A stretch of 64,000 nucleotides of DNA. Source: an uncultured delta proteobacterium. Lineage in GTDB: Bacteria > Desulfobacterota > Binatia > UBA9968. The position numbers were made by a program, and so were the translations under genes. The notes below the pieces were generated by a model that was given only the letters and a program-made list of their open reading frames with translations, was not told where the DNA came from and did not search any database. Of this stretch, positions 37,115 to 58,399 are shown in pieces (the stretch's first letter is position 1; every line of letters begins with the position of its first letter). Location of the stretch: contig CAVTUQ010000002.1 of NCBI GenBank assembly GCA_963737905.1, positions 64,001 through 128,000 of the forward strand, given 5' to 3'.

Positions 37115-38230
37115 TCAGTCTTTCAGCCGCAGGACATTGTGCGCTGTGATCGGGCGGTGAAAGCCCTTCAGTGTTAGCTCGCCTGCGGGCTCCACTTCCA
37201 CCAAATCTTCCACAGTCCCGAGCAGGCGTTGGGAAACCAGGATCTGACTGGGTTTGGCCTCACCGCAGAGGCGTGACGCAAGATTGGTGACGGTGCCGAT
37301 GGCGCCGTAATCCCAGCGGCCTTCAAATCCGATGCCGCCGATGGTGGCGTAGCCCTGCGCGATACCGACTCCCAAGTCGAGGTCATAACCTAATTTACGC
37401 CATTTTACGATCATCTCTTTCACTCGCTCCCGCATCGCCAGCGCCATCCCAATTGCCCGTTCCGCCGGATTGGGAACCGGCACCGGATCATTAAAAAAAA
37501 TCATCATGCCGTCGCCAGTGAATCGTTCCAAAGTCCCTTCGTGCTCCAGGATCAGCTTCCCCATTTCGGTATGGTACTCGCGCAGGACACCCATAACTTC
37601 TTCCGGCTCAGCGGTCTCGGCGAAAGCAGTGAAGCCCCGCAGGTCGAGAAAAACCACAGTGACCTCTCGCCGGTGGGTCTTCAGCGGGTCATCGGCGCCT
37701 CCGGCCACAATTAACTCGGCAAGCTGAGGCGAAAAGAAACGTTTTAGTCGCCCAAGTTGTTCAAGCTGAGTCACCTGATCTTCGACTCGCTGTTGCAGAG
37801 TCTTGTTCCAATCTGAAAGCTCGGCGGCTTGAACTTGAACGGTGTCATAAAGTTCTTTGATTCTAAGAAGCGACTTCGTTCGCGCGAGAAGCTCAGCCTG
37901 ATTGATCGGCTTCGTAAGAAAGTCATCAGCTCCAGCTTCGATCCCTTTGATTCGCTCTTCAGCGGGATCAAGCGCCGTCACCATCACCACGGGAAGAGTC
38001 CTCGTCTCCGGAATCTCGCGAATTTTACGGCACACCTCATAGCCGCTCATCTCGGGCATCACGACATCAAGAAGCACCAAATCGGGCTGCTCTCGCTCGA
38101 TCTTGTCTAGGGCTTCCTGCCCCGATACCGCGGTCACGACAGCGTATCCTTTGACGGTCAAAAGATCGGCCAGGAGCTTTACGTTCCTGGGAGTGTCATC
38201 GACAACAAGAATTTTGGCCGGTGATTTCAC
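37115..38230 (-). CDS. Response regulator receiver + class III nucleotidyl cyclase (copy A)
   Basis: REC domain (LVVDD, LLDVVMP, FLTKP), coiled linker, cyclase motifs VFLDLRGFT, ERFTGDG, TNLASRL, LKG. Confidence 0.93.
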   Translation of the reverse strand: MKSPAKILVVDDTPRNVKLLADLLTVKGYAVVTAVSGQEALDKIEREQPDLVLLDVVMPEMSGYEVCRKIREIPETRTLPVVMVTALDPAEERIKGIEAGADDFLTKPINQAELLARTKSLLRIKELYDTVQVQAAELSDWNKTLQQRVEDQVTQLEQLGRLKRFFSPQLAELIVAGGADDPLKTHRREVTVVFLDLRGFTAFAETAEPEEVMGVLREYHTEMGKLILEHEGTLERFTGDGMMIFFNDPVPVPNPAERAIGMALAMRERVKEMIVKWRKLGYDLDLGVGIAQGYATIGGIGFEGRWDYGAIGTVTNLASRLCGEAKPSQILVSQRLLGTVEDLVEVEPAGELTLKGFHRPITAHNVLRLKD

Positions 38231-38242
38231 GTCTCAATCGCA

Positions 38243-38316
38243 GGTGAGGAGTAAGGGATGAAGGGTCAGGCGAGAAAAGCAGGGACGCCCTCACGACTTA
38301 CCCCTGACGCCTTACG
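38243..38316. repeat. Period-7 palindromic repeat element (GTAAGG/CCTTAC type)
   Basis: ggtgagg-agtaagg-gatgaag-ggtcagg ... ccctcac-gacttac-ccctgac-gccttac; contains the stop codon of the receiver gene. Confidence 0.6.
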
Positions 38317-38692
38317 TTTTTGTCTCTCGAAGGACCCTTTCCACTTCCCCGAGAAAGTCCTTCAAGCTGATCGGCTTGGTCTGGTAGCCGTCAAACCCTT
38401 CAGCCAACATCGTTTTTCTATTGTGGGTCATGGCCGACGCGGTAATCGCGATGATAGGTATGCTCTGTGTTTGTGGCTTGGCCCGGAGTTGCTTCAGCGC
38501 GGTAATTCCGTCTATCCCCGGGAGCTGGATGTCCATGAGGATAAGAGCAGGCGATTTGTCCAGCGCGAGCTTTATTCCTTCTTCGGCCGTCTCAGCCTCT
38601 ATGGTCGTATAGCCCTTGACCTGAAGCACGTCTCGAACCAGCTTCCGGTTCTTCTCGTTATCTTCGATGATCAGTACCAGTTCGTTAGGCAT
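38312..38692 (-). CDS. Single-domain response regulator, DivK-like (copy A)
   Basis: IIEDN, LMDIQLPGIDG, ITASA and TKPI motifs. Confidence 0.92.
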   Translation of the reverse strand: MPNELVLIIEDNEKNRKLVRDVLQVKGYTTIEAETAEEGIKLALDKSPALILMDIQLPGIDGITALKQLRAKPQTQSIPIIAITASAMTHNRKTMLAEGFDGYQTKPISLKDFLGEVERVLRETKT

Positions 38693-38707
38693 AAAAGTTC
38701 GATGATC

Positions 38708-38800
38708 CTCCCGCAAAGGCGCAAAGACGCCAAGTTTAGAAGAAAAGATGGCTGATAATTCTAATAATAATTCTTCTAACACTTTGCGCCTTTGCGGGAG
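38708..38800. repeat. Period-9 palindromic repeat element with a perfect 19-bp inverted repeat
   Basis: ctcccgcaaaggcgcaaag (38708-38726) and ctttgcgcctttgcgggag (38782-38800) around an AT-rich spacer. Confidence 0.7.
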
Positions 38801-38806
38801 AAATTC

Positions 38807-41800
38807 TTATCTTATCGGAAGCGTGAACGTGAACGTCGATCCCCTTCCCATCTCGCTCTGCACCCAAATTTTGCCTTCGTGCAATTCGACGAATTTTCTG
38901 GTTAGACTCAACCCGAGCCCAGTTCCCTCGCGCTTCTGTGCATAGTTGGTCCCTACCTGGCGGAATTCCTCAAAGATCGCTTCCTGATCTTGCGGCGCGA
39001 TGCCGATGCCCGTGTCGGTGACCGAAATAATCACCGCACTGTCGCCCAGTGTCGCCTCGATCTTAATTCGCCCGCCCTCCGGCGTAAATTTCACCGCGTT
39101 GGACAGCAAGTTGACTAACACCTGCTTCACCTTGCGCTCGTCTCCGGTGAAGTCGCCAAGGCGGTCGTCGATGATACGTTCGAGCTTGATACCATGACGG
39201 CTGGCGCGCTCCCGTATGAGTAACAGCGCGTTCTCGATGGCGTCCGGCATGTAGAACGTCGTTACCTCCAACTCCATGCGTCCCGCCTCGATTTTGGACA
39301 GATCCAAGATGTCGTTGATGAGTGAAAGCAGGTGGCGGCCGGAGGAAAGAATGTCCTCGGTGTACTCAGCTTGCTTTTCATTTAGCTCGCCGAACAGTCT
39401 CTCCCCCAAGACTTCAGAGAAACCGATGATCGCATTGAGCGGCGTGCGCAGCTCATGCGAAACGTTGGCGAGAAATTCAGATTTATGACGGTTCGCCGTC
39501 TCCAGCTCTACACCCTTTGCTTCGATCTCGCGGAATAGCCGCGCATTTTGTATCGCCAATGCCGATTGAGTCGCAAAGGTCTGCAGAAGATTGACGACTT
39601 CCGGCGAAAAGCTGCCTGCTTCGCTTCGCCAGACCGTCAAGGCCCCCATGATTTGCTCCTCGCGGAGTAGCGGCACCGCCAAGGACAGACCGATAGCCGA
39701 GACGCGACAAGCATGGGCCGCATCGCGTAGTACCCGTAATTCCCGTTCCTCTAGAAGGTTCGCGACCTGAACTGGCGCGCGCACGTGTCGCCGCTTGACC
39801 GGTCGCGCCCTTGTCCCGGACGGACCGGGGTCGCCTGAAAGCGCTTGAACTATCTCCTCTTCCATGCGGTAACTGGCCCTGAGATGAAACTCTTGCGCAG
39901 TTTCATCGTACTCGTAGATAACGCCGCCATCGGTTCCGGAGAGTTGAACCGCGTGGCCAACGATGGTGCTAAGCACGGTCTGGAGATCGAGAGTAGAGCT
40001 GACCGCTTGTCCGACCTCCCCCAGCGCTTTCAGTTCTCCGACGGATCGCGCTAACTCGCTTCGTTCGTTGTTGTAGCTCTTGGAACAGGCGAACATTCTC
40101 GATGGCGATCACGGCTTGGTCGGCAAAGGTTTTGAGAAGCGCGATTTGCTTCTCGGTGAACGGTCGGACCTCCGTGCGGCGAATCAAGAATCGCTCCGAT
40201 CGGGACCCCCTCGCGCAGGAAGGCGTGGCTAGGCATCGTCCGAGTCGCCAATTTGTTGCTGATAATGGTCTGGCATCTGGAAACTCGCTTCTGAAGTTCT
40301 GCCGCAGGTCAAGGATGTGAACCGTTTGACGATCCATGACAGCTCGGCCTACCGCAGAACCGCGAGCTAAGGCCGATGAGCCGGTCCGAGTGGAATCGGC
40401 CCATATGCGCAACCGGCCGAAGAATGTCCCCATCAATACGATAGATCGAACCGTCAATGCCTCGCATAATCGCGCTGCGCATTTCCGCCACCGCATCCAG
40501 CACCGGCTGGATGTCGGTCGGCGAGCTAGCGATCACGCCCAGGATTTCACTCGTCGCAGTTTGTTGCTCCAACGCTTCGGTGAGTTGGCGGTTGCGATCC
40601 TCCAATTCCTTGAACAATCGTACATTCTCGATGGCTATCACCGCCTGATCGGCGAAGGTTTCTAGCAGCTTGATCTGCGCCGGTGTGAAGGGGCGTACTT
40701 CGATGCGACGTGCGTTCAATACTCCAATGAATTCTCCGCTGCTGACGAAGCGGAACGACCAATAAGGTGCGCCAGCCGCCGGTGGAACCCACCATTGGGA
40801 AATCGTTCTGCGCGCGGGCGTCTGGAATGTGAAGCGTGCCATGCTCGCGCATCCAGCGATACTGTGGCTCATCAATACTGATCTCGACGCGGCCAATGGG
40901 TATAGGACCAAAATGAGCCCGCGAAACCAACATGTTCCCCTCGTGGAGTCGCAGCACCACGTCATCAATCCCGCAAACCCGTGCGGCGCTCTCGACGATG
41001 GCGTCGAGCACCGGCTGCACGTCCGTGGGCGAGCGGCTGATGATGCCGAGGACCTCGCGGTTGCGGTCTGATGCTCCAGTGCCTCGCGCAACTCCGCGTT
41101 GCGTTCCTGAGTTCTTTGAACAGCCGGACGTTCTCGATAGCGATCACGGCCTGGTCGGCGAAGGTCTTCAGAAGCGCGATCTGCTTTCGGAAAACGGATG
41201 GACCTCGGTTCGGCGGATGAAGAATAGCCCCGACGGGCAGCGCCTTCGCGTAACAAGGGCACGGCCAGCGCGGTGCGAATGCGCTCCTGCTGCACCGCAT
41301 GCCACACTTCCGGAAATTCTTCTTCGCGTTCCGCCAGCATGTCGTGGATGTGCACGGTCTGGCGGTGCACAATCGCTCGTCCGGTGTTGGAACCGCCGCT
41401 GATCCGCCTCGTACTCCCGAGCGGAATGCCAATCCGGGCACGGTGCCGTAGCGCGCAACCTTGCGCATCATGTCGCCGTCGACGCGATAGATCTGTGCGT
41501 CTTGGGCGTCACATAGGCGCGCGGCACTTTCCGCCACAGCATCGAGCACGGGCTGAAGATCGGTGGGCGAGCTGGCAATCACGCGCAGAATCTCGCTCGT
41601 CGCGGTTTGTTGCTCCAGGGCCTCGGTGAGATCGCGGTTGCGGATTTCGGTAGTTCCTAAATAAGCGGGCGTTCTCGATCGCAATGACCGCTTGATCGGC
41701 AAAGGTCTGAAGCAGCGCCACTTGCTTCTGCGAGAATGGGGCGATGGCGGCGTGCCAAACTGTAATTGCGCCGATCGGATCAGCTCCCCCGGAGCATCGG

Positions 41801-44403
41801 CACGGATAACACGCTTCGGAAGCTCGCGATCTCACTGGCCGCATGCTCGGGATCATTCTCCACGTCCGGGACGTGGATGACCGCGCGATCGAAGATTGCT
41901 CGTGCCACGAACAGATGTCGGCCCGGCCGAGTTGGAAAAAGCTGCCGGGATAGCTCCAGGGCTGCTGGTGGATAGTTGTTATCGGCTACCATGTGGATGA
42001 GCTCGCCGTCGAATCGGTATACCGATCCGAAGAGAGCCCACAGAGTTTGACCGAATGTTCGGCGATGGTATCGAACACGGGCTGCAATTCGGTCGGCGCG
42101 CTGCTTATGACCGCGAGGATATCACTTGTCGCTGTCTGCTGTTCCAACGCCTCAGTCAGATCGCCGTTACGGACTTGCAGTTCTTGAAACAGCCGCACGT
42201 TCTCGATCGCGATCACCGCCTGGTCAGCGAAAGTGTGACCAGTGCGATCTGCTTTTCTGCAAAGGGCTCGGACTACACTCCTTCGGATCATGATCCCTCC
42301 GGAGTTGGCCCTCTCGTGAGCAGCGGGACTCCCAAAAGCGTTCTAACGAACCAATTCGGGCTCCCACTTCCCTAAATTAAATCCAGGATCAGTTAGGCAT
42401 CCGGGAAGATGAACTGGCCGTCGCTCAAGAGCGAACGGCCCATAACCGTACCGCGGTCATTAGGGGAGATAGGAGTTCGCTCGAAGAATTCATCTCAATT
42501 CGGGAGTCACGTTGTAAGCAACCGCCAGGCGAAACACGTCGTCATCGACCTATAGATATATCCCTGGTTAGCACCCAAAGGCGTCGCGGCGTTCTCGATC
42601 AGTGTTTCCAGAACGGGATGAAGGTCAAACGTCGAGCGGCTGATGACCTTGAGCACTTCGCTCGTGGCAGTCTGCTGCTCTAACGCCTCGGTGAGGTCGC
42701 GGTTCCGCGCTTCTGAGTTCCTTGAACAGCCGCACATTCTCGATGGCGATCACGGCCTGGTCGGCGAAGGTCTTAACCAATTCGATTTGTCGGTCAGTGA
42801 AAGGCTCGACAACGTCGCGCCAAATTGTGATTGTTCCGATTCCTGCTCCTTCTCGCAATAAAGGCACTGCCAACAACGTTCGCACCCCGGAGTCGGATGA
42901 CGTGGGAATAGTCTGCCGCGCTATAAATTGTGCATCGGCGGCGTGTAGTCGGGCGTCAAGGATGTGGATAGGTTTGCGGTCGAGGAAAGCTCGAGCGCCT
43001 GGAATGTTGGGACTTACTGGGAGGGGGTTGGACTGCAGGACCGCGATCCGTTCGGGACTTTCATTGTGATGAGCGACGACTCGCAAAAACTCTCCATCGA
43101 GTTGCCGGATATGGCCCTGTTTGGCCCCAGAAAGCTTCACAGCGTTGGCAACAAGGGTATCGAGTACTGGTTGGAGCTCAGTCGGTGAGGATGCGATAAC
43201 CCTCAAAACCTCACCGGTCGCCGTCTGTTGCTCCAGCGCTTCAGTCAGGTCGCGGTTCCGTTCCTGTAGTTCTTTGAAGAGCCGCACGTTCTCGATCGCG
43301 ATGACCGCTTGATCGGCAAAGGTTTCAAGCAGCTTTATCTGCTTGTCTGAGAAGGGGCGAACCTCTATCCGACGGATCATGATCGTTCCGATCGGCACAC
43401 TCTCACGCAGTAAAGGCGTGGCAAGCACGGTCCGAAGGCCGATCGTCTTAGCGAGCGACGCATTTGGGAACTCGTCCTCTGGTTCCGCTGCAAAGTCATG
43501 TATGTGAATGGTTTGTCTGTCAATGATGGCTCGACCGGATATCGAGCCACGGTCAATTGAGGTGGGACCTCCACCCAGCGACCCCGGCAGCGATCCATAA
43601 TTAGCCACCCTCTTCAAGGAATCACCATCGATGCGACTAATCAAAGCGTCGTCAGCCTCACACAGCCGCGCAGCACTTTCTGCGACTGCATTTAACACCG
43701 GCTGGATATCCGTCGGCGAGCTGGCGATGACGCCCAAAATTTCACTCGTTGCCGTTTGTTGCTCCAACGCTTCATTGAGTTCTTGAAACAGCCGCACATT
43801 CTCAATGGCGATGACCGCCTGGTCGGCAAAGGTTTCAAGCAAACGGATTTGCTGGTCCGAGAACGGACGAAGCTCCAGGCGACGAAGGTGGATTATCCCA
43901 AGCGGAATTCCATTTCGCAGCAGCGGCACAACTAGCACACTCTTCACGCCTGATGGAATTGCATAGATCTTGGCACCGGGGAACTCATTAATAGCTGCCT
44001 GAACGTCAGGGACATGGATTGTCCGCCGGTCGAGAATGGCTCGGCCGGGCACCGATCCGAAGTCGATGGATACATTTTCCCTTCCGGCCAAAGTTGGGAT
44101 AGAGCCAAAGTGAGAAACCGTTTGGTAGGTCTTACCATCGGTGCGCCGCACTAACACATCGTTGGCATCGCACAACCGCGCCACATTCTCGGCAATGGTG
44201 TCCATGACGGCCTGCAGATTAGCCGGAGCTTTGGCAATCATATGCAGGATGTCGCTAGCCGCAGCGAGTTGTTCCAGCGCCTCGTCGCGCTCCCGCTTTA
44301 GCTCCTCAGCTGCCTGTGGATGCTTGAGCTGAGACTTTTCAGATGAGACACGGGGCGGCTTTGCCCTTGTTTTCTTCGCGCCCTTTTTGGTGGTCGTTGC
44401 CAT
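38807..44403 (-). CDS. Giant cytoplasmic histidine kinase A: 9 tandem GAF modules + HisKA + HATPase_c (many frameshifts in this sequence)
   Basis: Start [11 protein letters not shown]. Eight [11 protein letters not shown](V/A)RLF module ends plus a final [46 protein letters not shown]. No TM helix seen. Fragments are collinear across the ORF track. Confidence 0.85.
43307..43737. repeat. GAF module copy 1, about 99% identical to 54353-54783
   Basis: Manual alignment at offset 11046: 431 bp, 5 substitutions, no indels. Confidence 0.92.
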
Positions 44404-44581
44404 AAAGCAGATCGAGACGGGACTGAACTGACTTTTACGCCAGGTGGTTGCAGGCGTCAAGGAAAGCTATGAAAGGGTTGCAACGCAACCGCTATGGGTT
44501 CGCTTTAGCGAGTCTACCGAATTTTTCGACGGGAAGACTACCTCACGAATCGCGCAACGTCCCAATTTCGGTCAAAAAAAG

Positions 44582-44610: not shown

Positions 44611-44752
44611 TCTCACAGATAACGGCCGGATTTTGACGAAAAAATAAAAAACACCGCTGAAGTTTGGGAGGTTCTGCCGCGCCGGTCGGTGCGAGATGTG
44701 CCAGAAGGATCAAATCCTTCTTACGAGGCGATGCAGCGGGGGAGAGACGCTC

Positions 44753-46117
44753 ATGAAACCACAGAGGAACGATCCCTGCCCTTGCGGGAGCGGCAAGAAA
44801 TACAAAAAGTGCTGCCTACCCAAGGAAAGAGACCAACAAGCCGGCGATTCCCCCTGGAGCCATGCCGGCAAAGTGCACCGCATTCAGCACGCCGACGATT
44901 ATCCGGTGGAGGCCTGCTATCTCAATGCTGATTGGAAAGGGCAGGGATTGGCCCGCATCGTGGTTACTCGGAGCCAAGAGAACGGGAAAATCATGGTAGC
45001 AGCGTTCCTGGTCGATATTTTCTGCCTGGGAGTCAAAAACGCCTTTTGTAATGAGGGCCTCGGCAGAAGGCAGATTGAGGCTCAACTTCTGCCTGGATAC
45101 TACCAGAATGAGGAACCCACGAGAGTCGGGATCAACTATGTCAAGGAGATCATCTACGGCGCGGTAGATTACGCCAGAAGTCTAGGATTTGAACCTCATC
45201 CTGATTTTGAACTTTCCCGCCAAGTGCTTGGATCTGAAGAGATTGGCAGGACCCGCAACCTGACCTTTGGCGGGCCGGAGGGAAAGCCGTTTTACGTGGC
45301 CGGCCCCGATGATGATACCGCAACGGTCCTGCAAAAGCTTCGCAAGAGACTAGGGGAAGACGGATTTAACTTTATTGCGCCGGAAGAGGACTGGGAGGAT
45401 ATAAAGGAAGACGAAGACCAGCAGCCCGGACTGGTGAGTCGGGTATTGGGTCAAGCGACGGAGCTTCTGGACGCTGACCTCAAGAGATACAAGCACCTTA
45501 GACAAATTGGGATGCGCTTAATGGGTGCGATCACAAGGTCGCTACCGAGGGAATTGATCCTCCAGGCTGCAAGAGATTTGCGGCTGTTGGATAAAAAGGG
45601 GAGGATCGTCTGCGATACGGAAGATGAAACGTCATTCATCATGGATCGCGCTATCCACGACATACCCTGGCCGGAACAGAGATACATAGAAATCTATCAC
45701 CAAGACGAGGCCTCAAAGCTATCTCTAGATCAGCAGGCGTATCTAGAGGCAAACATACAGCCGGTTTTTTCCTTGTACGAAGTTTTGAAGGTATCCCGCG
45801 GTCGCGGTGTATGGCTAGTGAATCTATTTTCGCCGGAAGAATTTTTTCTCATGGATACTGGATTAGGAACGACAGCCGAAAAAGGATGCCTTTTGGCCAG
45901 CAGGGTAATCCGCCTCAACGGAATCTGTTTCACCTCCGGGGTGACTATGCCTTTTGGCCCCGAACACAAAAGGCGCCTCACGCACCACTTTACTTCCCTG
46001 GCAGATGACAAAGAAGGAGCCGGAAGCTGGGAGAGGCTGATGCAGCGTCATGCTCCATATTTCTTTATTGAGTTTAAGAAGACCGGTGTTGCCGTCGAGT
46101 TTACTACGGTCACTTAA
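44753..46117 (+). CDS. SEC-C metal-binding motif protein of unknown function
   Basis: GGAG RBS; RNDPCPCGSGKKYKKCC at the N-terminus; FLVDIFCLGVKNA, GFEPHPDF, GKPFYVAGPDDD. Confidence 0.85.
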   Translation: MKPQRNDPCPCGSGKKYKKCCLPKERDQQAGDSPWSHAGKVHRIQHADDYPVEACYLNADWKGQGLARIVVTRSQENGKIMVAAFLVDIFCLGVKNAFCNEGLGRRQIEAQLLPGYYQNEEPTRVGINYVKEIIYGAVDYARSLGFEPHPDFELSRQVLGSEEIGRTRNLTFGGPEGKPFYVAGPDDDTATVLQKLRKRLGEDGFNFIAPEEDWEDIKEDEDQQPGLVSRVLGQATELLDADLKRYKHLRQIGMRLMGAITRSLPRELILQAARDLRLLDKKGRIVCDTEDETSFIMDRAIHDIPWPEQRYIEIYHQDEASKLSLDQQAYLEANIQPVFSLYEVLKVSRGRGVWLVNLFSPEEFFLMDTGLGTTAEKGCLLASRVIRLNGICFTSGVTMPFGPEHKRRLTHHFTSLADDKEGAGSWERLMQRHAPYFFIEFKKTGVAVEFTTVT

Positions 46118-46604
46118 GCCACGTGCCGTACGGACCAGGATTTTCTTTTTGCTCTTTCGGGCTTACTGTGAAGAAGCATTCACCCGAGGGGGGTCCAATC
46201 GCTCAAGCCGTTAGAACTGAAAGCACGGGCTGACAACCTGAGCGTTTTTAAAAGCCCACGATCTCTGCGAGCGGTTGGGGCTCTTCCGATATTGATGATA
46301 AAAGGAAGTCCTGGTTCAGCGTTTACGTTCTTTACCTGAACGAATTCCTTGTTTCTCTGGGGACCCCGGCGCCAACCTCGCAAAGACTCCAGTCAACCTC
46401 GTCTTTATTTTGGCTTTCCGAAACTTGCCATGTTTTGCGTGAGATGATTCTTCTCCGACTTCGGATCTATTTCCCGCCAACTCGCCAAGATTTGAAGGCC
46501 ATGCCTTTTGTCGAGCGAATCTTCGTTCCGCACACGCGCTGCGTTACTTAATTCCCTTGCAGTAAAACAGTAAAAACTATAGGTCTTCAGGCCTTCCTGT
46601 GAAC

Positions 46605-46935
46605 CAGGACTCGGAGATTGCGCCGCGGATCCGCCAAAGGATGGATCAGCGACAGTTTTTAAGGCTGAGGCGCGGAGGACCCAGAGTAAACGAGTTCTTG
46701 GTAAAAAAATTTTTCTCCTCGCAAACTCTGTCTATGCTTGAAAGTTTTCGCCGCTTGCGTAAATTTGCCGATATATGAAACATCTCGGATTCGGATATTT
46801 CTCCCGCCATGCCGCGAAGAACGCCAAGTTTTGATAACTATTATTTCTCTTTCTTTGCAGCCTTTGCGTGTTTTCGGGAAAATATTCCGCTTCTTTGGGT
46901 TGCGGCGCAGCCGCGCTGTGCCTCTGCGGTGAACA
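46605..46935. repeat. Cluster of degenerate REP-like and period-9 repeats
   Basis: gccgcgaagaacgccaag ... ctttgcagcctttgcg; ggttgcggcgcagccgcgct; cctctgcggtgaa; agattgcgccgcggatcc...ggatc. Confidence 0.5.
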
Positions 46936-48216: not shown

Positions 48217-48261
48217 GATGTGTGCTTCTTGCAGTTTCGCCCATCTGGCTAGGAGACTTTC

Positions 48262-48786
48262 TTAACCGCAAAGAACGCAAAGTTCGCATAGGAAAAATTC
48301 TTTTGCATTTCTTTGCAATTGTCCGACGACCGTTCAACATTCGCCGAAACACCTTCTCACCACGAAGATCAGGAAGACCACGAAGGGCGGGTTTGAAAAG
48401 CACCTCTATTTTTTTGCGTCCTTTGCACTTTATGTTTAAGCGTTTTCGCAGCTTGCGCAAATTTTCCAGTGCCCCGTGGCTATCCAAAACTGGGATTTGC
48501 TCGTGCCAAGACGCGAAGCACGCCAAGTGGCGGGCCAGGCCCGTCATCCCGAGCGGAGACGAGGGATCTGAGAAAGATTTCTCCCTTCGGTCGAAATGAC
48601 AATACGTTTTTCTTTGCGGCCTTTGCGCGAGATATTCCCAGTTCTTCTTTTGTGTTCTTTGCGCCCTTTGCGGTTAATTCTCCGGTTCCGAATCGACTTT
48701 GGTTGCGGCTTTTGCCGCGCTAGGTTCTTTGCGGTTAAATTCCTCTCCGTCCTTAATCTAAAATCGGCAATCTAAAATCCAAAATC
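48262..48786. repeat. Pile-up of nested repeats between receiver B and cyclase B
   Basis: Period-9 arms (aaccgcaaagaacgcaaag; ctttgcgccctttgcggttaa), a GTCATC...ATGAC REP at 48543-48600, ggttgcggc..gccgcgctagg, and a period-7 aatctaa/aatccaa tract at 48755-48786. Confidence 0.65.
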
Positions 48787-49150
48787 ATAGGAACTCCTGG
48801 ATTTTGGCCAGCAGCTCGGCTGGATCAAACGGCTTCGTTACATAGGCATCGCAGCCGGCCTCGGCCGCCTTAATGTCATCGCCGCTGAGCGCATAGGAGG
48901 TCACTGCGATGATGGGGATATGGCGGAGCGCGGCATTGGCTTTGATCCGCCGCGTCACCTCGTATCCGTCAATGCCGGGAAGCTGGATATCCATAAGGAT
49001 CAGATCCGGCACCTGCGCCTCCGCCGACGTCAACCCTTCCTCACCCGTGACCGCCTCAATCAATTCATAACCAACGCTTGTGAGAAGGTCGCGCAAGAGG
49101 CGCCGATTTTCTTCGTGGTCCTCGATAACCAATATCCGCTTTCCAGCCAT
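48785..49150 (-). CDS. Single-domain response regulator, DivK-like (copy B)
   Basis: LVIEDH, LMDIQLPGIDG, VTSYA and TKPF motifs. Confidence 0.92.
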   Translation of the reverse strand: MAGKRILVIEDHEENRRLLRDLLTSVGYELIEAVTGEEGLTSAEAQVPDLILMDIQLPGIDGYEVTRRIKANAALRHIPIIAVTSYALSGDDIKAAEAGCDAYVTKPFDPAELLAKIQEFL

Positions 49151-49174
49151 AGCAAATCTCAACTTTAAAGACTT

Positions 49175-49380
49175 TTAACCGCAAAGATCGCAAAGTTCGC
49201 ATAGAATTTTTTTGCGTTCTATGCGTTCTTTGTGGTTAGCCTCTTGGTTTGCTCCTCTTCCCTTGCGCCTTTGCGCGAGATTGATTCTTTCTTTTTTATC
49301 CCGCCAAGACGCCAAGCTCGCAAAGAAAATCTCCTTAACTAATTTTCCTAACTTGGCGTACTTTGCGCCTTTGCGCGAGA
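49175..49380. repeat. Two period-9 palindromic repeat elements
   Basis: ttaaccgcaaagatcgcaaag / ttgcgttctatgcgttctttgtggtta and cgccaagacgccaagctcgcaaag / cttggcgtactttgcgcctttgcg. 49175-49204 differs by one base from 48262-48291. Confidence 0.7.
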
Positions 49381-52300
49381 AAACTCTTCTCCGTACGGTA
49401 GCGTGAAAGTAAACTTACTCCCTTTCCCCACTTCGCTTTCCACCCAGATCTTTCCTCCGTGTAATTCGACGATTCTTTTTGCGATGGCGAGCCCGAGCCC
49501 CGTGCCCCCCTTCTTCTGCGTGATGGAGCCCTCGGCCTGTCGGAACTCGTCGAAGATTTTTTCGCGATCCGTCTCCGGGATCCCTGGCCCGGTATCCGAC
49601 ACCGACACCAGCAAATTCCCGTTCTCCGCTGCCACGTCGATCCGAACCTCCCCCGAGTCCGTGAACTTGATCGCGTTGCCAACGAGATTCAACAACACTT
49701 GCGCAATTCGCCGCTCGTCCCCTAGCGCGGCAGGCAAGTCGGCAGGAACTGTGACCTTCAGCGGAAGATTCTTCTCCGCGGCCAGAGATTGCGTGCCGGA
49801 GACGACGGCCTGAATCACGTCTTTAATCGAATAAGGGTTGATCGCCAAAGTTAGTTGGCCGGCCTCGATCTTGGAGAAATCGAGCACGTCGTTGATCAGG
49901 CCGAGCAGATGACGGCCGCTTTTGTCGATTCGTCCGTGGACGTCTCTAACCTTCTCGGGCAGCTCGCCGTACACGTTCATCAGGAGCATCCGCGTATAGC
50001 CCAGGACGGCATTCATCGGCGTGCGCAGCTCATGGCTCATACTCGCCAAAAACTGCGATTTGTACTTGCTCGCCAGCTCCAGTTGATGTCCCTTTTCCTC
50101 GATCTCTCGAAAGAGCCGTGCATTTTGTATCGCCAAGGCCGATTGAGTCGCGAAGGTCTGAAGAAGTGGACGACTTCCGGCGAAAAGCTGCCGGCCTGCT
50201 TCCGCCACACCGTCAACGCCCCCATGATGCGCCCTTCTCGGAGAAGCGGAACCGCCAGAACAGATCGATATCCGAGCCGAGCCGCGATAGGCCGGAGTCG
50301 CGTAGCCCCGAGTTCCTGCTCCTCTAGCAGATTAACGACTTGAACTGGAGCCCGAGTGATTGTCGCCCGCCCGGTCGCGCCCTCTCCCTGTCGTATCGGC
50401 GCTGCCCGAATGGCTTCGACTAGTTCTTCTTCCATACGGTGGCTAGCCCTGAGACGAAATTCCTGCCCACCTTCGTCGTACTCGTAGATAACTCCACTGT
50501 TGGTACCTGAAAGCTGGACCGCATGGCCAACGATGGTGCTGAGCACGGTCTGGAGATCGAGAGTAGAGCTGACCGCCTGACCGACCTCGCCTAACGCTCT
50601 AAGCTCGCCGACCGACTGTGCCAGCTCGCGGGTCCGCGCCTCCAGTTCCTGGAACAGCCGCACGTTCTCGATTGCGATCACCGCCTGGTCGGCGAAGGTT
50701 TCTGAGCAGTTTGATCTGCTTGTCGGTGAAGGGACGGACCTCCATGCGGCGAATATGAATCGCCCCGATGGGTAGTTCCTTCGCGCAGCAATGGCGTGGC
50801 AAGATCGTCCGAACGCCCACGTGCTGGCAAAGCTGCAGACTCCGGAAAGTCATCTCTCTGCCGCGCAAGTCATCGGAATGTGAATTGTTCGTCGGTCAAT
50901 TATGGCTCGCGCCGTTGGTAGAGCCACGGTCGATTGGAGAATTCCCGCAGGTCCCACCCGGCAAGGCCCGTAATTAGCCACGATCTGAAGCATGTCACCA
51001 TCAACGCGATAAATCACCGCGTCAGTTGCATCGCACAGCCGCGCCGCATTCTCGGCGACCACATCCAGCACCGGCTGAATGTCAGTCGGCGAGCTGGCGA
51101 TGACGCGGAGGATTTCGCTCGTAGCCGTCTGCTGCTCCAACGCTTCAGTGAGATCGCGATTGCGGACTTGCAATTCTTGGAAAAGCCGCACGTTTTCGAT
51201 CGCGATCACGGCCTGGTCGGCGAAGGTCTTGAGTAGCGCGATCTGCTTGTCGGTGAAAGGGTTGACTTCCGCGCGACGAATCAGAATGGCCCCGATGGCG
51301 ACCCCCTCACGGAGCAATGGGGTCGCCAGTCTCGTCTGCAGGCCGAATTGTTTCTGATAATCCATGCTCACCGTGAATTCGTCCTGCGACGCCGCTTCCA
51401 AGTCATGGACATGGATTGTCTCTCGATCAAGCACTGCTCGGGCAGGCACCGAGCCGCGGTCCATAGGTCCTGCTTCTCCGATTGGTCCTGTAGGTAGCGT
51501 CCCATATTTAGCCACTCGCCGAAGGTTGCTACCATCTACACGGAAAATAACTGCGAGGTCCCCACCGCAAACACGTGCGGCACTCTCGGCCACTACATTC
51601 AGCACCGGCTGGATATCTGTCGGCGAACTGGCGATGACACCCAAGATTTCACTCGTAGCCGTTTGCTGCTCCAACGACTCCTTGAGTTCTCGGAACAGCC
51701 GCACGTTCTCGATGGCGATCACCGCTTGATCGGCGAAGGTTTCGAGCAGTTTGATCTGCGCCGGGGTGAAGGGGCGCACCTCGGTGCGACGCGCGGTCAA
51801 TACTCCAATGAGTTCCCCCTGCTGACGAAGGGGAGCGGCCAAGAAGGTGCGGAAGTTGCCGGCGGAACCCAACATCGGGAAATCGTTCTGCGCGCGGACG
51901 TCGGGAATGTGGAGCGCGCCGTGCTCGCGCATCCAGCCATACTGTGGCTCATCAATACTGATCTCGGGGCGGTCAATAGGTATGGGACCAAAATGAGCCC
52001 GCGGAACCATGGCGTTCCCCTCGCGGAGTCGCAGCACCACGTCATCAATCCCACAAACCCGCGCGGCGCTCTCGACGATGGCATCCAGCACCGGCTGCAC
52101 ATCCGTTGGCGAGCGGCTGATGATGCCGAGCACCTCAGCCGTTGCAGTCTGATGCTCCAGGGCTTCCCGCAATTCAGCGTTCCGCTCTTGGATATCCTTA
52201 AACAGCCGGACGTTCTCGATGGCGATGACCGCTTGGTCGGCGAAGGTTTTGAGAAGCGCGATCTGTTTGTCGGTGAACGGCCGGACTTCTTTTCGATGGA

Positions 52301-55300
52301 TTACAATCGCGCCGATCAAATCATTCTCTTTTAGCAAGGGAACGGCTAAGACACTCCGCATCCCCTGGTCACGATAAGGCCCGGTGCGATAAGCGGTCAG
52401 TTCTGGATCGGCAAGAACATCCGGTACATGGACCAACCGCCGTTCCAATGCGACCCGGCGTACCGCGCTCTCTCGCCCTGGACGAAAAGGCGTACCCAGC
52501 GCATACGCCTCCATCGCAGGTGCCACATTGTATAATGCAACGCCTCGAAGGGTCTCGCCATCAAATCTAAACATCGCACCATTTTGCGCCTCGCAGAGGC
52601 GGACTGCATTGTCGAGGATCGTCTGAAAGACGGGCTGCAAATCAGTTGGCGAACTGGCGATCACGCCAAGAATTTCGCTTGTCGCCGTTTGCTGTTCCAA
52701 CGCTCTCGGTACTGGTTCCTTCAGCTCTTGGAACAATCGCACGTTTTCGATGGCGATGACGGCTTGGTCGGCGAAAGTTTCGAGCAGTTTGATCTGCACC
52801 GGGGTAAAGGGGCGCACTTCAGTGCGACGCGTAAACAGCGATCCGATAAGTTCCCCTTGCTGGCGAAGGGGGACGGACAAGAAGGTGCGCCAGCCGCTGC
52901 GGGAATCAACCGTCGGGAAGTGGAAGTCTTTCCGTTCGCGGGCGTCAGGAATATGGAGTGTGCCGTGCTCGCGTAACCAGCCGTACAATGGTGCATCCAC
53001 ATCGGTCTCGACGCGGAGAACGGGTATTGGGCCAAAATGAGCCCGCGCAACCATTGCGTTCCCCTCGCGGAGTCGCAGCACCACGTCATCAATCCCACAA
53101 ACCCGGGCAGCGCTTTCAACAATCGCATCGAGCACCGGCTGGACATCGGTGGGTGACCGGCTGATGATGCCGAGCACTTCGGATGTGGCTGTTTGATGCT
53201 CCAGGGCCTCTCGCAATTCAGCGTTGCGCGCTTCGAGTTCCTTGAAGCAGCCGCACATTCTCGATAGCGATCACGGCTTGGTCGGCGAAGGTTGTGACAA
53301 GCTCGATCTGTCTCTCGGTAAATGGCCTGACTAGCATCGGACCAGATCGAGATCGGCCGATGCGATTCGCCTCGCGAAGCAGCGGAACGACTAGCAGGGT
53401 GCGCGCTCCGAACGTGCTGGAGTCGGCCTTAGACTCCGGAATCTCAGTTCGATGTCCGCAATATAGATCGGCTTGCGCTCCAGGAACGCCTGACCCGACG
53501 ACGTATCACGCCCGGGCCGCACTGACGCTTCGACTGCATAGCTGATCACGCCTTTGGACGCCGACGTCTGAAATAGGCAACAACTTGGAGAAACTCCCCA
53601 TCGAACTGGCGAATATGAGCCTTGCTTCGCGCCGGCAGAGCCTCACCGCATTTTCTACGAACCGTATCGAGCACCGGTTGAAGTATCAGTCGGCGAACTC
53701 GCAATGACTCTTAAGCACTTCGCTCGTCGCTGTCTGCTGCTCTAGAGCTTCCGTAAGATCGCGGTTGCGGACTTGCAATTCTTGGAAAAGCCGCACGTTT
53801 TCGATCGCGATCACGGCCTGATCGGCGAACGTCGTAACTAGCTCAATTTGCTTCTCTGTGAAAGGCTCGAACTACAGTCCTTCGAATCAAGATTACGCCA
53901 ATGAGGGTGCCCTCTCTGAGCATCGGGACTCCGAGAGTCGTCCGAGTGCCTCCCAGAGTGTGAGCTTCCGCAAGTTGATACTCAGGATCCGCGACGATGT
54001 CGTGAATATGAATGACACGGTGTTCAAGGGCGACCCGCGCCACGGTGGTTCCTCGCCCCGGTCGAATCGGGTTTTGCTCGAGGAAATCCTTGAATTCAGG
54101 CGGAACATTGTAAGCGACAGCCCGCCGCAGCACTTCCCCATCGACTCGCAAAATAAACCCGGAATTCGCACCGCACAATCTTGTTGCATTCTCGATGAGT
54201 GTTTCCAGCACCGGCTGCAAGGTCGAAAGTTGAGCGGCTGATGACTTTCAAGCACTTCGCTGGTCGCGGTCTGCTGCTCTAGCGCTTCGCTCAGGTCACG
54301 ATTTCGTGATTGGAGTTCCTGAAACAACCGGACGTTCTCAATGGCGATGACGGCTTGATCGGCAAAGGTTTCAAGCAGCTTTATCTGCTTGTCTGAGAAG
54401 GGGCGAACCTCTATCCGACGGATCATGATCGTTCCGATCGGCACACTCTCACGCAGTAAAGGCGTGGCAAGCACGGTCCGAAGGCCGATCGTCTTAGCGA
54501 GCGACGCATTTGGGAACTCGTCCTCTGGTTCCGCTGCAAAGTCATGTATGTGAATGGTTTGTCTGTCAATGATGGCTCGACCGGATATCGAGCCACGGTC
54601 AATTGAGGCGGGACCCCCACCCAGCGACCCCGGCAGCGATCCATAATTAGCCACCCTCTTCAAGGAATCACCATCGATGCGACTAATCAAAGCGTCGTCA
54701 GCCTCACACAACCGCGCAGCACTTTCTGCGACCGCATTTAACACCGGCTGGATATCCGTCGGCGAGCTGGCAATGACGCCCAAGATTTCGCTCGTCGCCG
54801 TTTGCTGTTCCAACGCCTCCTTGAGCTCTTGAAACAGGCGGACGTTCTCGATGGCAATCACCGCTTGATCGGCGAAGGTTTCGAGTAATTTGATCTGCGC
54901 CGGGGTGAAGGGGCGCACCTCGATGCGACGCGCGCCTAGTCCTCCAATGAGTTCCCCCTGCTGACGAAGGGGCACTACTAATAAGGTGCGGTAGTTGCTG
55001 AAGGGTGCCAACATTGGGAAATCATTCTGCGCGCGGACATCGGGAATGTGGAGCGAGCCATGCTCGCGCATCCAGTGATACCGTGGTTCATCAATACTCA
55101 TCTCGATTTGGGCAACGGGTATGGGACCAAAATGAGCCCGCGCAATCATAGTGTTCCGCTCGTGGAGTCGCAGCACCACGTCATCGATCCCACAAACCCG
55201 GGCGGCGCTCTCGACGATGGCGTTAAGCACCGGCTGCACGTCCGTCGGCGAGCGGCTGATGATGCCGAGCACCTCGGCAGTCGCCGTCTGATGCTCCAGG

Positions 55301-57533
55301 GCCTCGCGCAATTCTGCGTTGCGCTCCTGGAGTTCTTTGAACAACCGCACGTTTTCTATGGCGATCACGGCCTGGTCAGCGAAGGTTTCAAGGAGTTTGA
55401 TCTGTTTGTCTGTGAACGGCCGCACCTCGTTCCGACGGATGGTAATTGCCCCGATAGGAGTACCTTCACGCATAAGGGGAACCGCCAGCCCGGTCCGAAT
55501 ACCCAGACTCTTTAAGCTATGCCAGACATCCGCATAGTCCGCTTCGCGCTCTGCCAACATGTCATGGACGTGGACCGGCTGCTGGTTGAGTATGGCGCGG
55601 CCGCTCAACGAACCACGCCGAATTGGCCGTGTCTCGCCGACGGCGAGCACCGGTGAGACGACCCCGTAGTTCGCCACTTTCCGCGCCATGTCACCTTCGA
55701 CGCGCCAGATTTGAGCATCGACGGAGCCACAACTCGAGCAGCGTTTTCAGCAACAGCAGCCAACACCGGCTGAATATCCGTCGGAGAGCTGGCGATGACA
55801 CGAAGTATCTCACTCGTCGCGGTCTGCTGTTCGAGCGCCTCGGTAAGATCGCGGTTGCGAACCTGTAGTTCGTTCAGCAGTCGGGTATTCTCCATCGCGA
55901 TCACGGCCTGATCGGCAAAGGTAGTTACCAAATCGATCTGCTTGTCGGTAAAGGGCCGTGCTTCCGTTCGACTGAGCGTGATGACGCCGAGCAGGTCATG
56001 TCCCCTAAGCAGTGGCACACCCAGCGCTGCCCGGTATGGTTGCACTTGCCACGCCTGATAGGTGTACTCCGGATCCGACAAAATATCCGGTATGTGAATG
56101 GTCTGTCGTTCAAGCGCAGCTCTCGCAGTGACGCTGTAACGTCCGGGCGTGAGCGGGTTGCGCTCGACAAATTCTCGCAGTTCCGCAGAAACGTTGTAGG
56201 TGACCGCTAGCCGCAATACTCCGTCTTCGAGCCGCAGAATGAACGCCTGCTCCGCCGCGCACAGTCTCGCCGCGTTCTCAACCAGTGTTTCAAGGACCGG
56301 CTGCAGGTCAAAGGCCGATTGACTGATGACTTTGAGCACTTCACTGGTCGCCGTCTGTTGCTCCAACGCTTCGGTGAGATCGCGGTTGCGAACTTGTAGT
56401 TCGTTGAACAAGCGCACGTTTTCGATGGCAATGACCGCCTGATCAGCAAAGGTCTGAAGTAGAGCGACTTGCTTGTCAGAAAAGGGACGAACCTCTAATC
56501 GGCGAATAATAATCGCCCCGAGGGGAATTCCCTCGCGCAGTAACGGGGTGGCAAGCACGGTACGATAACCAAAGCGGCGTGCCAAAGCGATGCCGACTGG
56601 GAATTCATCTTCCGACTCTGCCGCGAGATCATGAATGTGGATCGTTTGCCTGTCGATGACGGAACGAGCAAGTACCGAGCCACGCTGGAGCGGCATTTTA
56701 TCAGCCTCGGTAAGGCCAGGGATATGTCCGTACTGAGCGACCAAGGGAAGGACATCGCCGTCAATGCGCCGGATAAGAGCGTCGCTTGCACCGCATAATC
56801 GAGCTGCATTTTCCGCCACAGTATCCAGCACCTGCTGAATGTCAGTCGGTGAACTAGCAATAACACCGAGAATTTCGCTCGTCGCCGTTTGTTGTTCCAA
56901 TGATTCAGTGAGCTCCTGAAACAGCCGAACATTCTCAATGGCGATGACAGCCTGGTCGGCGAAGGTCTTCAGAAGTCGAATTTGGCCGTCTGTGAACGGC
57001 TTAACCTCGAGGCGCCGGAGCCCTATCAACCCGATCGCTTGCCCCTTCCAGAGGAGAGGCGTGTACACAAGGGTGCGGAGCCCGATTGGCTGTACCCGGG
57101 CGCGGGTTGGCGCAAACATCGGATCTTCTTCAGCCAGAATGTCGTGGATATGCACGGTCTCACCGGACGTAAGAACATGCCGGTTCAGTGGTTCATCGGC
57201 GATCGGGAGCGCGACAATCGTAATCGGGATTGGACCGACATGGGCCATCAGTCGGAGCATGTTACCGTCGACCAGGCGCACTGAGGCATCCTCCGCGCTA
57301 CATAGACGCGCGGTGCTCTCGACGATCGCGTCGAGAACCGATTGAAGTCTGTCGGCGAGCTCGCGATCATCCGCAGGATGTCGCTAGCCGCAGCGAGTTG
57401 TTCCAGCGCTTCGTCGCGCTCGCGCTTTAACTCCTCAGTTGCCTGTGGATACTTGAGACTGAGACTTTTTCGGCAGGGCACGGGGTTGCTTTGTCGTTGA
57501 TTTTTTCGAGCCTCTTTTGGTGGTCGTTGCCAT
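49348..57533 (-). CDS. Giant cytoplasmic histidine kinase B: 14 tandem GAF modules + HisKA + HATPase_c (many frameshifts in this sequence)
   Basis: Start [11 protein letters not shown], homologous to the kinase A leader. Thirteen FADQAVIA(I/M)EN module ends plus a final [46 protein letters not shown]. About 2700 aa if intact. Confidence 0.85.
54353..54783. repeat. GAF module copy 2, about 99% identical to 43307-43737
   Basis: Same alignment as copy 1; a single amino-acid difference (GGGPTSID vs GGGPASID). Confidence 0.92.
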
Positions 57534-58395: not shown

Positions 58396-58399
58396 GAAA

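Follow-up and report, generated by a model that had tools for sequence, protein, structure and literature searches.

Two paralogous multi-GAF histidine kinase operons with predicted receiver-cyclase output in an uncultured Binatia bacterium

Introduction

A stretch of 64,000 nt from the metagenome-assembled genome (MAG) GCA_963737905.1 (Desulfobacterota, Binatia, UBA9968; contig CAVTUQ010000002.1, positions 64,001 to 128,000), hereafter the window, contains two neighbouring operons whose histidine kinases carry long arrays of related GAF modules. The locus raises the question of whether these arrays are sensor cassettes that are actively exchanged through conserved linkers, as proposed in a sequence-only reading of the window, or products of slow family evolution, and whether kinase genes with many interruptions of their reading frames are likely to be functional. 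We favour, at a probability of roughly 0.7, the interpretation that the locus comprises two cytoplasmic two-component operons that are paralogues and probably functional, that their arrays were built slowly and that their frame shifts are consensus errors.

Organization of the two operons

Both operons are located on the minus strand and, by Pfam domain calls, encode a multi-GAF histidine kinase, a single receiver and a receiver-class III cyclase, in the order that had been claimed. The kinases contain GAF/GAF_2/GAF_3, HisKA and HATPase_c domains, with GAF, GAF_2 and GAF_3 calls on each open piece of both genes, while the single receivers carry Response_reg and the last gene of each operon Response_reg and Guanylate_cyc. 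In operon 1, the kinase K1 (38807..44403) consists of a basic leader, nine GAF modules (starts, taken at the F of FADQ, at 43830, 43320, 42768, 42231, 41703, 41162, 40656 and 40127), HisKA and HATPase_c, with the kinase core beginning at 39577. It is followed by the single-domain receiver REC1 (38312..38782; Pfam REC domain from residue 36 of the listed ORF) and by the receiver-cyclase CYC1 (37115..38230), an unbroken gene of 371 aa. Operon 2 encodes the kinase K2 (49348..57533) with 14 GAF modules (starts at 56963, 56450, 55919, 55383, 54876, 54366, 53829, 53289, 52775, 52244, 51737, 51224 and 50696; kinase core from 50154), HisKA and HATPase_c, the single-domain receiver REC2 (48785..49162) and the receiver-cyclase CYC2 (47084..48216). 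The gap between receiver and cyclase is 568 nt in operon 2 versus 81 nt in operon 1; it contains dispersed short repeat copies (48409..48744), and such dispersed copies are also present downstream of CYC2 (46574..46934).

The HisKA domain (PF00512) was detected with E-values of 1.5e-24 in K1 and 4.9e-21 in K2, with SHELRTP present in both translations, and HATPase_c (PF02518) with 7.4e-34 and 6.7e-36, respectively. PF00072 genes lie directly downstream of the kinase in both operons; the phosphotransfer partners named here are assigned from this adjacency alone. The kinase cores share 51% and the receivers 43% identity, and the HisKA residues differ as originally stated (TPLNAI in K1, TPMNAV in K2). 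No membrane segment was evident in the leader on inspection by eye, and an Rfam scan of positions 36000-58500 yielded no matches at the gathering threshold. A plus-strand gene encoding a SEC-C-motif protein (44696..46117) separates the two operons and, judged by sequence, lies outside the signalling system. Orthologues with 73-80% aa identity were identified in three of 40 related genomes, on contigs that are at most 3 kb long or lack GAF genes.

The predicted class III cyclase domain (PF00211) was identified with an E-value of 7.3e-22. The catalytic domain of CYC1 aligns to that of CyaB (3r5g; E 4.9e-38), including the 'fLDlRGFT' and 'GDg' motifs that contain the metal-binding aspartates, and the best solved match of its receiver is PleD. 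In class III cyclases, the substrate-determining pair is Lys/Asp-or-Thr for ATP and Glu/Cys-or-Gly for GTP. The putative pair of CYC1 and CYC2 consists of Arg (ERFTGD) and Gly (DYGAIG), compared to Lys/Thr in CyaB, Glu/Gly in Cya2 (2w01) and Lys in the engineered adenylate cyclase 6fht.

GAF modules and their helical connector

Regular-expression linker anchors, including the last one, [11 protein letters not shown], delimit nine modules in K1 and 14 in K2; nhmmer yields the same totals, in agreement with the numbers first proposed, and a repeat finder recovered 21 internal linker copies. Most of the claimed module anatomy was likewise recovered: CGIDDVV occurs four times (one copy in K1 and three in K2) and CEADDA twice, each module type carries its own upstream linker variant, and the LE(Q/H)QTAT block is present in seven copies in K1 and 12 in K2. 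VLKVIS..FDL, said to occur three times, is exact only twice (42656 and 56339), and a frame shift interrupts the third copy, 'VLKS' at 53718. The homology of the leaders (92% over 95 nt and 79% over 75 nt in the repeat comparison) and of the last GAFs (77% nt identity, within a terminal-module clade with support 100) was also borne out. In total, this MAG encodes ten multi-GAF arrays with 83 modules.

The modules of K1 and K2 form series of consecutive GAFs (nine and 14, respectively) with a conserved connector between them. When two-module units from the window and from 17 other loci were aligned, all 64 of them carried this connector, [15 protein letters not shown]. Among 72 regex-parsed modules out of 211, linkers are six (39), 13 (32) or ten (1) residues long, the two main classes thus being one heptad apart. 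An AlphaFold2 model of a two-module unit (mean pLDDT 92.1) features a single helix of 53 residues (162-214) containing both the 15-residue connector and LEQQTAT, which places the linker inside a predicted helix joining adjacent GAFs. The best Foldseek matches of this model are tandem GAFs, including 1ykd (E 1.6e-16), 1mc0 (3.6e-16), 3ibj, PDE5/6 and phytochrome GAF-PHY, all at about 1e-16, consistent with a GAF-helix-GAF fold; TM-scores against tandem GAF structures reach only about 0.35 because the domain orientation differs. Sequence searches against solved structures returned weak GAF matches only (8w26 at 2.7e-6, 3o5y, DevS 4ynr and 3oov) and therefore give no clue to the ligands.

Interrupted reading frames

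The kinases had been presented as whole genes with no mention of frame shifts, but each is broken by many of them, and neither has an uninterrupted sensor-to-kinase reading frame as assembled. K1 is distributed over at least seven and K2 over at least five ORFs, with at least 29 single-base frame shifts in K1 (between 42768 and 39578), at least 20 in K2 and one in cyclase 2. They affect six of the nine modules of K1 and seven of the 14 of K2, where the frame is lost approximately 26 codons past the start and the shifts are clustered in modules 1, 4, 7-9 and 13-14. In CYC2, a 1-nt gap near 47379 closes the open frame after 285 aa; the remainder of the catalytic domain is encoded in another frame, with 86% nt identity to CYC1.

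From the comparisons available, these approximately 50 breaks in the kinases and cyclase 2 are most likely consensus errors of the MAG assembly. The alternative, that real frameshift mutations have made true pseudogenes of K1, K2 and cyclase 2, which would now be decaying in this lineage, appears rather improbable. It would account for the roughly 50 shifts in the deposited sequence, for the other multi-GAF genes of the MAG that are likewise broken (two genes on C26, and those on C3 and C36) and for the dispersed repeats inserted in operon 2. Furthermore, housekeeping genes are mostly intact, so that the breaks do not reflect a genome-wide error rate. The unbroken frames of RpoB (1379 aa) and of three of four full-length PF00133 genes (932, 1143 and 880 aa), together with the normal ORFs in the remainder of the window, also agree with the consensus-error interpretation. 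One PF00133 gene (C22) is split into two frames, which indicates that the assembly is not clean elsewhere either. Decay is, however, difficult to reconcile with a frameshift-aware alignment of the 23 modules, which contains 47 shift events and not a single in-frame stop even with a stop scored as cheaper than a shift, with the continued conservation of linker and type-specific residues, and with the confinement of the shifts to contiguous patches that border on fully open sequence. In addition, all five kinase indels among the 12 of 31 listed restore the frame by frame arithmetic in independent metagenome contigs (+G at 41056; -1 at 50703, 53868, 54217 and 54250), four of them within 4 nt of a predicted shift event of matching sign, and the contigs concerned include some from a run with an otherwise 100% match. 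Run X1 also contains contigs that show no differences over 772 and 487 nt. In a congener (G002), the kinase ORF, with six modules and a length of at least 1255 aa, is uninterrupted and is followed by a receiver and a 371-aa receiver-cyclase.

None of the five indel sites seen in contigs is associated with a homopolymer, and hence there is no simple error signature. The crowding of about 50 errors in 14 kb stays without explanation under the consensus-error interpretation, and the frame-correcting contigs could stem from sister strains. Programmed frameshifting or a different genetic code was dismissed by argument, as the shifts are bidirectional, irregularly spaced and absent from intact paralogues.

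Module exchange and array stability

A tree of all 83 modules from the ten multi-GAF genes of the MAG was used to compare modules by type, gene and position, replacing single-linkage identity clustering, which chained the types together. Module orthology across genes depends on this quickly built tree, which leaves 38 of its 80 inner branches unresolved. There is no grouping by gene (59 label changes versus a shuffled mean of 59.6), and clustering by position is restricted to first and last modules, the internal ones grouping by type; the CGIDDVV type, for example, forms a 19-member clade with support 100. K1 modules 2, 3, 4 and 6 pair with K2 modules 6, 8, 7 and 4, respectively, and are thus non-collinear. 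Most modules differ by 13-35% in DNA (65-87% identity). The exception is a tract of approximately 420 nt on the minus strand of K1 module 2 (43307..43725), which has five mismatches to K2 module 6 (54353..54771; ~99% identity) and probably reflects recent gene conversion. Its ends lie within conserved blocks: one reaches 14 nt into the linker, and the other is located where the conserved N-helix block ends. Apart from this pair, no stretch of at least 80 nt within 37000-57600 matches any other part of the genome at 88% or more.

The earlier proposal that recombination through the linkers shuffles modules within and between genes is consistent with the non-collinear types, the lack of gene clustering and the near-identical tract, but nothing indicates that shuffling is ongoing or programmed. 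In its strong form, in which the linkers are recombination sites and GAF cassettes are frequently exchanged to yield a combinatorial repertoire on population time scales, we consider it quite unlikely. One end of the tract does fall inside a linker, the two arrays on C26 provide a second near-identical pair in their terminal modules (93.9%), and the congener G002 has a different module order. Against this, only a single tract of at least 88% identity was found across 20.6 kb, all remaining modules being far more diverged, and linker DNA would be a poor substrate for recombination: the linkers are 50% identical at third codon positions, exact runs common to two linkers have a median length of 11 nt, and runs of 20 nt or more occur in only 8.6% of 2628 linker pairs. 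Homogenization of linkers within genes was not seen either (codon identity 0.52 within and 0.52 between genes). Across phyla, it is the protein sequence of the linker that is conserved, its synonymous sites being scrambled; the linker sits in the middle of a long predicted inter-domain helix, so its conservation is attributable to function. No recombinase or reverse transcriptase was identified when 22 ORFs of the operons and their neighbourhood were searched with Pfam, and silent donor cassettes are absent from the locus, all modules being inside the two kinase genes. Contig joints between distant linkers (e.g. 42701>50647 and 52244>55399), considered as alternative module orders, were discounted, as their sides at the linkers measure at most 34 nt and such joints usually represent other organisms or repeats. 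A collapse or chimerism of repeats, which would make module number and order an artefact, is highly improbable. The architecture is repetitive, the bin has 6.7% contamination and many contigs cross-map at linkers; nevertheless, modules at this level of divergence are not confusable, independent contigs bridge at least four of the 21 junctions among 32 of 3380 contig pieces listed (K1 m1/m2, K2 m1/m2, K2 m6/m7 and K2 m12/m13), and intact relatives carry up to 18 modules per ORF. Given the high divergence, the scrambled linker DNA and the lone recent tract, shuffling is best regarded as slow family evolution and not as an active cassette system; reshuffling of modules appears to be mostly ancient, with one recent exchange between K1 and K2.

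No orthologue of K1 or K2 was found in the same-genus genomes G001 and G002, where the best matches are partial and reach 70-85% nt identity. Among metagenome contigs, the best match to the leader and module 1 has 80% aa identity and is located on a 2-kb contig. The public runs listed, which were compared through short contigs only, each contain at most 0.29 of the sampled words, and none of those listed is an RNA data set.

Relation to known systems

Judged by sequence comparison, the K1 and K2 operons belong, as unexceptional members, to a very large family of soil-bacterial multi-GAF kinases, annotated only as 'GAF domain-containing protein', which share the arrangement of multiple GAFs, HisKA and HATPase_c, the 15-residue connector and, in many phyla, a downstream receiver-cyclase. 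Among the candidates scored, at least 8000 proteins, 1071-3055 aa long, reached E<=1e-30, and 51 of 80 loci encoding relatives of the receiver-cyclase contain a same-strand ORF with one to 18 GAF modules. Other MAGs share the module types, with aa identities of up to 82-84%, but arrange them in a different order, and no orthologue with the module order of K1 or K2 was found in the family comparison. The locus described here differs in having two such operons 5 kb apart. No paper treating giant multi-GAF kinases was found in the literature searched.

The NKFDE motif is the cNMP-binding signature of tandem GAFs; NK[FYW]DE and a looser expression gave no matches in three frames of K1 and K2, which is a crude test. 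As in the tandem GAF-A/GAF-B proteins CyaB2 (PDB 1ykd), PDE2A, PDE5 and PDE6, adjacent GAFs are here predicted to be joined by one long helix, and inter-GAF helical linkers are noted in PMC1592074. Those proteins contain two GAFs, compared to nine to 14 here, and their GAFs are fused directly to a cyclase or phosphodiesterase, whereas the GAFs of K1 and K2 would drive a histidine kinase. Cyanobacteriochromes likewise combine GAF sensors of differing specificity in one signalling protein but bind bilins and are restricted to cyanobacteria, whereas the present organism belongs to an order with relatives labelled Nitrospira; 'GAF arrays' are mentioned in 10.1101/2022.09.22.509050. An equally crude regex search for two motifs of these photoreceptors gave no matches in K1 or K2. 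These motifs, DXCF and CH, contain the bilin-binding cysteines.

In the Caulobacter DivJ/PleC-DivK-PleD circuit, a kinase is combined with a single-domain receiver and a receiver-fused nucleotide cyclase. The operons follow the same logic of kinase, stand-alone receiver and receiver-fused second-messenger cyclase, with a class III cyclase (PF00211) instead of a GGDEF output and with kinases that are soluble GAF arrays. Programmed cassette systems include pilE/pilS and vls gene conversion, shufflons and diversity-generating retroelements. Repeated cassettes with conserved flanks and one gene-conversion-like tract are shared with these systems, but K1 and K2 lack silent cassettes and a nearby recombinase or reverse transcriptase, their cassettes are strongly diverged, and the flanks are conserved as protein and not as DNA.

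Proposed function and significance

Based on domain calls and the predicted helix, we hypothesize that each kinase is a chain of GAF sensors linked by unbroken helices, which continue into the HisKA helix. The ligand or redox state at single GAFs could be integrated along this helical spine and thereby set autophosphorylation. Gene order and domain types suggest that the phosphoryl group would then pass to the neighbouring single receiver, to the receiver domain fused to the class III cyclase, or to both, altering cyclic-nucleotide synthesis. With their diverged kinase cores and receivers, the two pathways may be insulated from each other while converging on near-identical cyclase catalytic domains. 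The arrays would have been assembled over long times from a few conserved module types, which were duplicated, lost and occasionally swapped through homologous exchange within the conserved helix-coding blocks, with one such exchange between K1 and K2 being recent. A bolder proposal treats GAF types as discrete ligand-specific parts that are exchanged between paralogous kinases often enough for strains to differ in the signals feeding each cyclase pathway, the K1 module 2/K2 module 6 tract being a snapshot of live, selectable exchange that rewires cyclic-nucleotide signalling; we regard this as unlikely.

The locus does not reveal a new mechanism. Frame breaks in such genes of long-contig MAGs are probably errors, and annotation as pseudogenes is unwarranted. 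Giant multi-GAF kinases abound in soil metagenomes, at least 8000 long relatives having been scored, and the locus provides a clean example of how their arrays may be built, with conserved types, first and last modules fixed by position and free internal order. It also exemplifies a helical connector quantized in heptads, rare gene conversion, and two apparently insulated pairs of kinase and receiver whose pathways converge on cyclase domains that are nearly identical.

Organization of the two operons

The minus-strand region 37115-57533 contains two three-gene sets of identical gene order, each encoding a multi-GAF histidine kinase (K1 in operon 1, K2 in operon 2), a single receiver (REC1, REC2) and a receiver-cyclase (CYC1, CYC2). 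The open pieces of both kinase genes match GAF, GAF_2 and GAF_3 repeats together with HisKA and HATPase_c in Pfam. REC1 (38312-38782, -) and REC2 (48785-49162, -) each consist of a lone Response_reg domain, and CYC1 (37115-38230, -) and CYC2 (gene 47084-48216, -; Pfam-called piece 47359-48216) combine Response_reg with Guanylate_cyc. A SEC-C-motif gene (44696-46117, +) stands between both operons.

K1 contains nine GAF modules and K2 14, as determined by regular expression, a DNA profile and 21 direct-repeat copies. The conserved 15-residue joint between modules is present eight times in K1 and 13 times in K2 (regular expression), and a variant of it precedes HisKA once per kinase. The sequence-only reading was largely right about this architecture: its four CGIDDVV and two CEADDA copies were recovered by motif search, the LE(Q/H)QTAT block occurs between modules (seven in K1, 12 in K2), the HisKA residues differ between the kinases and sequence comparison confirmed that the leaders are homologous. 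The VLKVIS..FDL motif, reported as threefold, is present with only two exact matches, and the breaks in the kinase reading frames were overlooked.

A PIN-domain gene, with small ORFs lacking a Pfam match alongside, is located directly upstream of K2 (59273-59668, +; 58156-58455, -), and together these may form a toxin-antitoxin pair. A short dispersed repeat (85-200 nt, 80-92% identity) has copies at 48409-48744 and 46574-46934 and recurs at dozens of places in the source MAG and in two same-genus genomes, G001 and G002; it has no match in Rfam. The set at 48409-48744 occupies the 568-nt gap between REC2 and CYC2, whereas the equivalent gap in operon 1 measures only 81 nt.

Relationship to other multi-GAF kinases

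The source MAG, a metagenome bin of 6.7 Mb in 46 contigs (87% complete, 6.7% contaminated), contains 89 joint copies according to a genome-wide DNA profile, and its 83 modules in total are spread over ten arrays with 3 to 14 modules each. The K1 kinase core shares 76-78% identity with the cores of six other arrays in this genome and just 51% with that of K2, whose nearest relative is the array on contig C36. REC1 and REC2 are 43% identical, and the catalytic halves of CYC1 and CYC2 share ~85% DNA identity (93% amino acid identity over the last 96 residues). As leader and output domain are similar and the kinase-receiver pairs divergent, the two operons are mosaics. CYC1 and CYC2 are mosaics themselves, their close catalytic halves being joined to far more divergent receiver halves (61% amino acid identity in the segment of residues 6-273).

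With the first 611 residues of K1 as query, at least 8000 proteins between 1071 and 3055 residues long scored E<=1e-30. Their Pfam string is the same, and any names they bear go no further than 'GAF domain-containing protein' or 'sensor kinase'. Furthermore, a same-strand ORF with 1 to 18 GAF modules is present at 51 of 80 loci encoding REC-cyclase relatives. Full-text literature searches returned no paper on such multi-GAF arrays. The closest published systems comprise the tandem GAF-A/B modules with inter-GAF helices (PMC1592074; PMC4411481) and the GAF arrays of cyanobacteriochromes (10.1101/2022.09.22.509050). Both operons belong to this known, unstudied family of multi-GAF kinases.

Interrupted kinase reading frames

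Neither K1 nor K2 is one open reading frame. K1 falls into at least seven ORF pieces and K2 into at least five, successive module pieces lie in different frames of the module profile, and six of nine modules in K1 and seven of 14 in K2 are broken when each module is required to be open and in frame. Frameshift-aware alignment of each module with its best intact relative, in which a stop was scored cheaper than a shift, required 29 single-base shifts in modules 4-9 of K1 and 18 in modules 1, 4, 7, 8, 9 and 13 of K2, which has at least two further shifts at the joint of modules 13 and 14 and at the end of module 14. The shifts form contiguous patches (42768-39578 in K1; 54366-52776 and 51224-50155 in K2) with long, perfectly open neighbouring stretches. 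In addition, a 1-nt gap near 47379 ends the CYC2 frame after 285 aa. ORFs in the remainder of the window are normal.

These breaks are probably not real but assembly errors (probability about 0.8). The same alignment found no in-frame stop codon in the 23 modules against 47 modelled shifts, which speaks against mutational decay, because decay should yield nonsense changes too. Contigs from four public soil metagenomes were compared with the kinase region, and the five kinase-internal indels among the 12 of 31 indel rows listed (a G inserted after 41056 and one base missing at each of 50703, 53868, 54217 and 54250) all restore the frame by frame arithmetic on the module-profile frames, four of them within 4 nt of a predicted shift of matching sign. 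One metagenome run (X1) essentially contains the same strain, since its contigs show no differences across 772 and 487 nt. Long genes are open elsewhere in the source MAG (RpoB, 1379 aa; three PF00133 genes, 932, 1143 and 880 aa), and in G002 a kinase with six modules is open without interruption over at least 1255 aa and is followed by genes for a REC protein and a REC-cyclase of 371 aa. The five contig-supported indel sites lie outside homopolymers, which offers no simple error signature for the concentration of breaks in these genes.

Other multi-GAF kinase genes in the source MAG are split by frame shifts as well (contig C26, 53.4-59.9 kb and 62.5-68.1 kb; C3, 43.6-49.2 kb; C36, 17.4-19.7 kb), and three are intact, two on C1 and one on C10 (1972, 1861 and 1175 aa). 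A class I aminoacyl-tRNA synthetase (PF00133) on contig C22 (174135-175948) was matched as two pieces whose frames are open over 280 and 422 aa, which may be another assembly frame break. At locus L162 of a Rokubacteria-labelled MAG, the GAF array upstream of the REC-cyclase is divided into seven ORFs of one module each. In other MAGs, a single ORF encodes an entire array of 8-18 modules.

Module relationships and rate of exchange

In a maximum-likelihood DNA tree covering the 83 modules of the source MAG (quick search; 22 of 80 inner branches starred, 38 unresolved), modules do not cluster by gene (59 label changes versus a shuffled mean of 59.6); the small C36 array alone is monophyletic. 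Strong groups comprise eight terminal modules (100*), five first modules (95*) and a 19-member CGIDDVV-type clade (100*) with members in nine arrays. The pattern expected of simple tandem duplication, with modules grouped by gene or position, thus holds solely for end modules and not for internal ones. Modules 2, 3, 4 and 6 of K1 pair with modules 6, 8, 7 and 4 of K2 (supports 99*, 98* for the clade, 86 and 97*) in non-collinear order. The same module types occur in arrays of other MAGs with up to 82-84% amino acid identity and in different orders; one type pair is arranged H-I at locus L085 and I-H in K1.

Judged from sequence identities, module shuffling is slow. Best matches between different modules show 65-87% DNA identity, with the exceptions of K1 module 2/K2 module 6 (95.7%) and the terminal modules of the two C26 arrays (93.9%). 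Across 37000-57600, only one tract of at least 80 nt matches elsewhere in the genome at >=88%. This tract (43725-43307, five mismatches in ~420 nt), shared by K1 module 2 and K2 module 6, is a clear gene conversion of cassette size whose two ends fall in conserved sequence: identity drops to ~80% upstream, where a conserved 18-residue block ends, and to ~73% on the downstream side, 14 nt inside the following FADQ joint. Recombination through the linkers, as proposed in the sequence-only reading, fits this recent exchange as an occasional event and describes how the family has evolved, but with a single tract at >=88% and other modules at 65-87% an active shuffling system is unsupported. Pfam searches of neighbouring and component ORFs revealed neither a recombinase nor a reverse transcriptase, and the locus lacks silent cassettes.

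Conservation of the inter-module joint

Among 2628 joint pairs, codon positions 1 and 2 are 89% identical and position 3 is 50% identical; in-register exact runs have a median length of 11 nt, and only 8.6% of pairs share at least 20 nt. Identical amino acids use the identical codon at 52% of joint positions versus 37% of core positions, partly because two-fold degenerate codons are frequent in the joint, and joint codon identity is the same within and between genes (0.52 each). The same joint peptide also links modules in Methylomirabilota-, Burkholderiales-, Actinomycetota- and Chloroflexi-labelled MAGs.

K1 modules 2-3 were modelled with AlphaFold2 from an alignment of 64 two-module units (mean pLDDT 92.1, pTM 0.73). 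In this model the joint lies midway along one predicted helix (residues 162-214), which starts as the final helix of one GAF, passes through the connector and continues as the opening helix of the following GAF. The best fold matches of the model are the tandem GAFs of CyaB2, PDE2A, PDE5 and PDE6 and phytochrome GAF-PHY pairs. In the 72 of 211 modules parsed by pattern, connectors measure 6 (n=39), 13 (n=32) or 10 residues (n=1), the main classes lying one heptad apart. The sole 10-residue connector belongs to K2 module 10 (52775-52245) and may reflect a compensated pair of indel errors. Conservation of the joint is explained by this predicted structural, signal-carrying helix, so homogenising recombination would be needless.

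Proposed signalling mechanism

Domain content, gene order and the predicted helical spine are what the analysis shows. In the mechanism proposed on this basis, each GAF type would sense its own small molecule or state, and the resulting changes would be relayed through the spine to the helix of HisKA, where they would determine how active the kinase is. Phosphotransfer to the stand-alone receiver, the cyclase receiver or both would follow and alter cyclic-nucleotide synthesis. CYC1 and CYC2 carry Arg (ERFTGD) and Gly (DYGAIG) at an aligned pair of positions that presumably bear on the nucleotide made. At this pair the adenylate cyclase CyaB (3r5g) has Lys/Thr and 2w01 has Glu/Gly, and the nucleotide product of CYC1 and CYC2 is uncertain from sequence. 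The divergent kinase cores and receivers suggest that the two operons provide two insulated inputs feeding the same kind of output.
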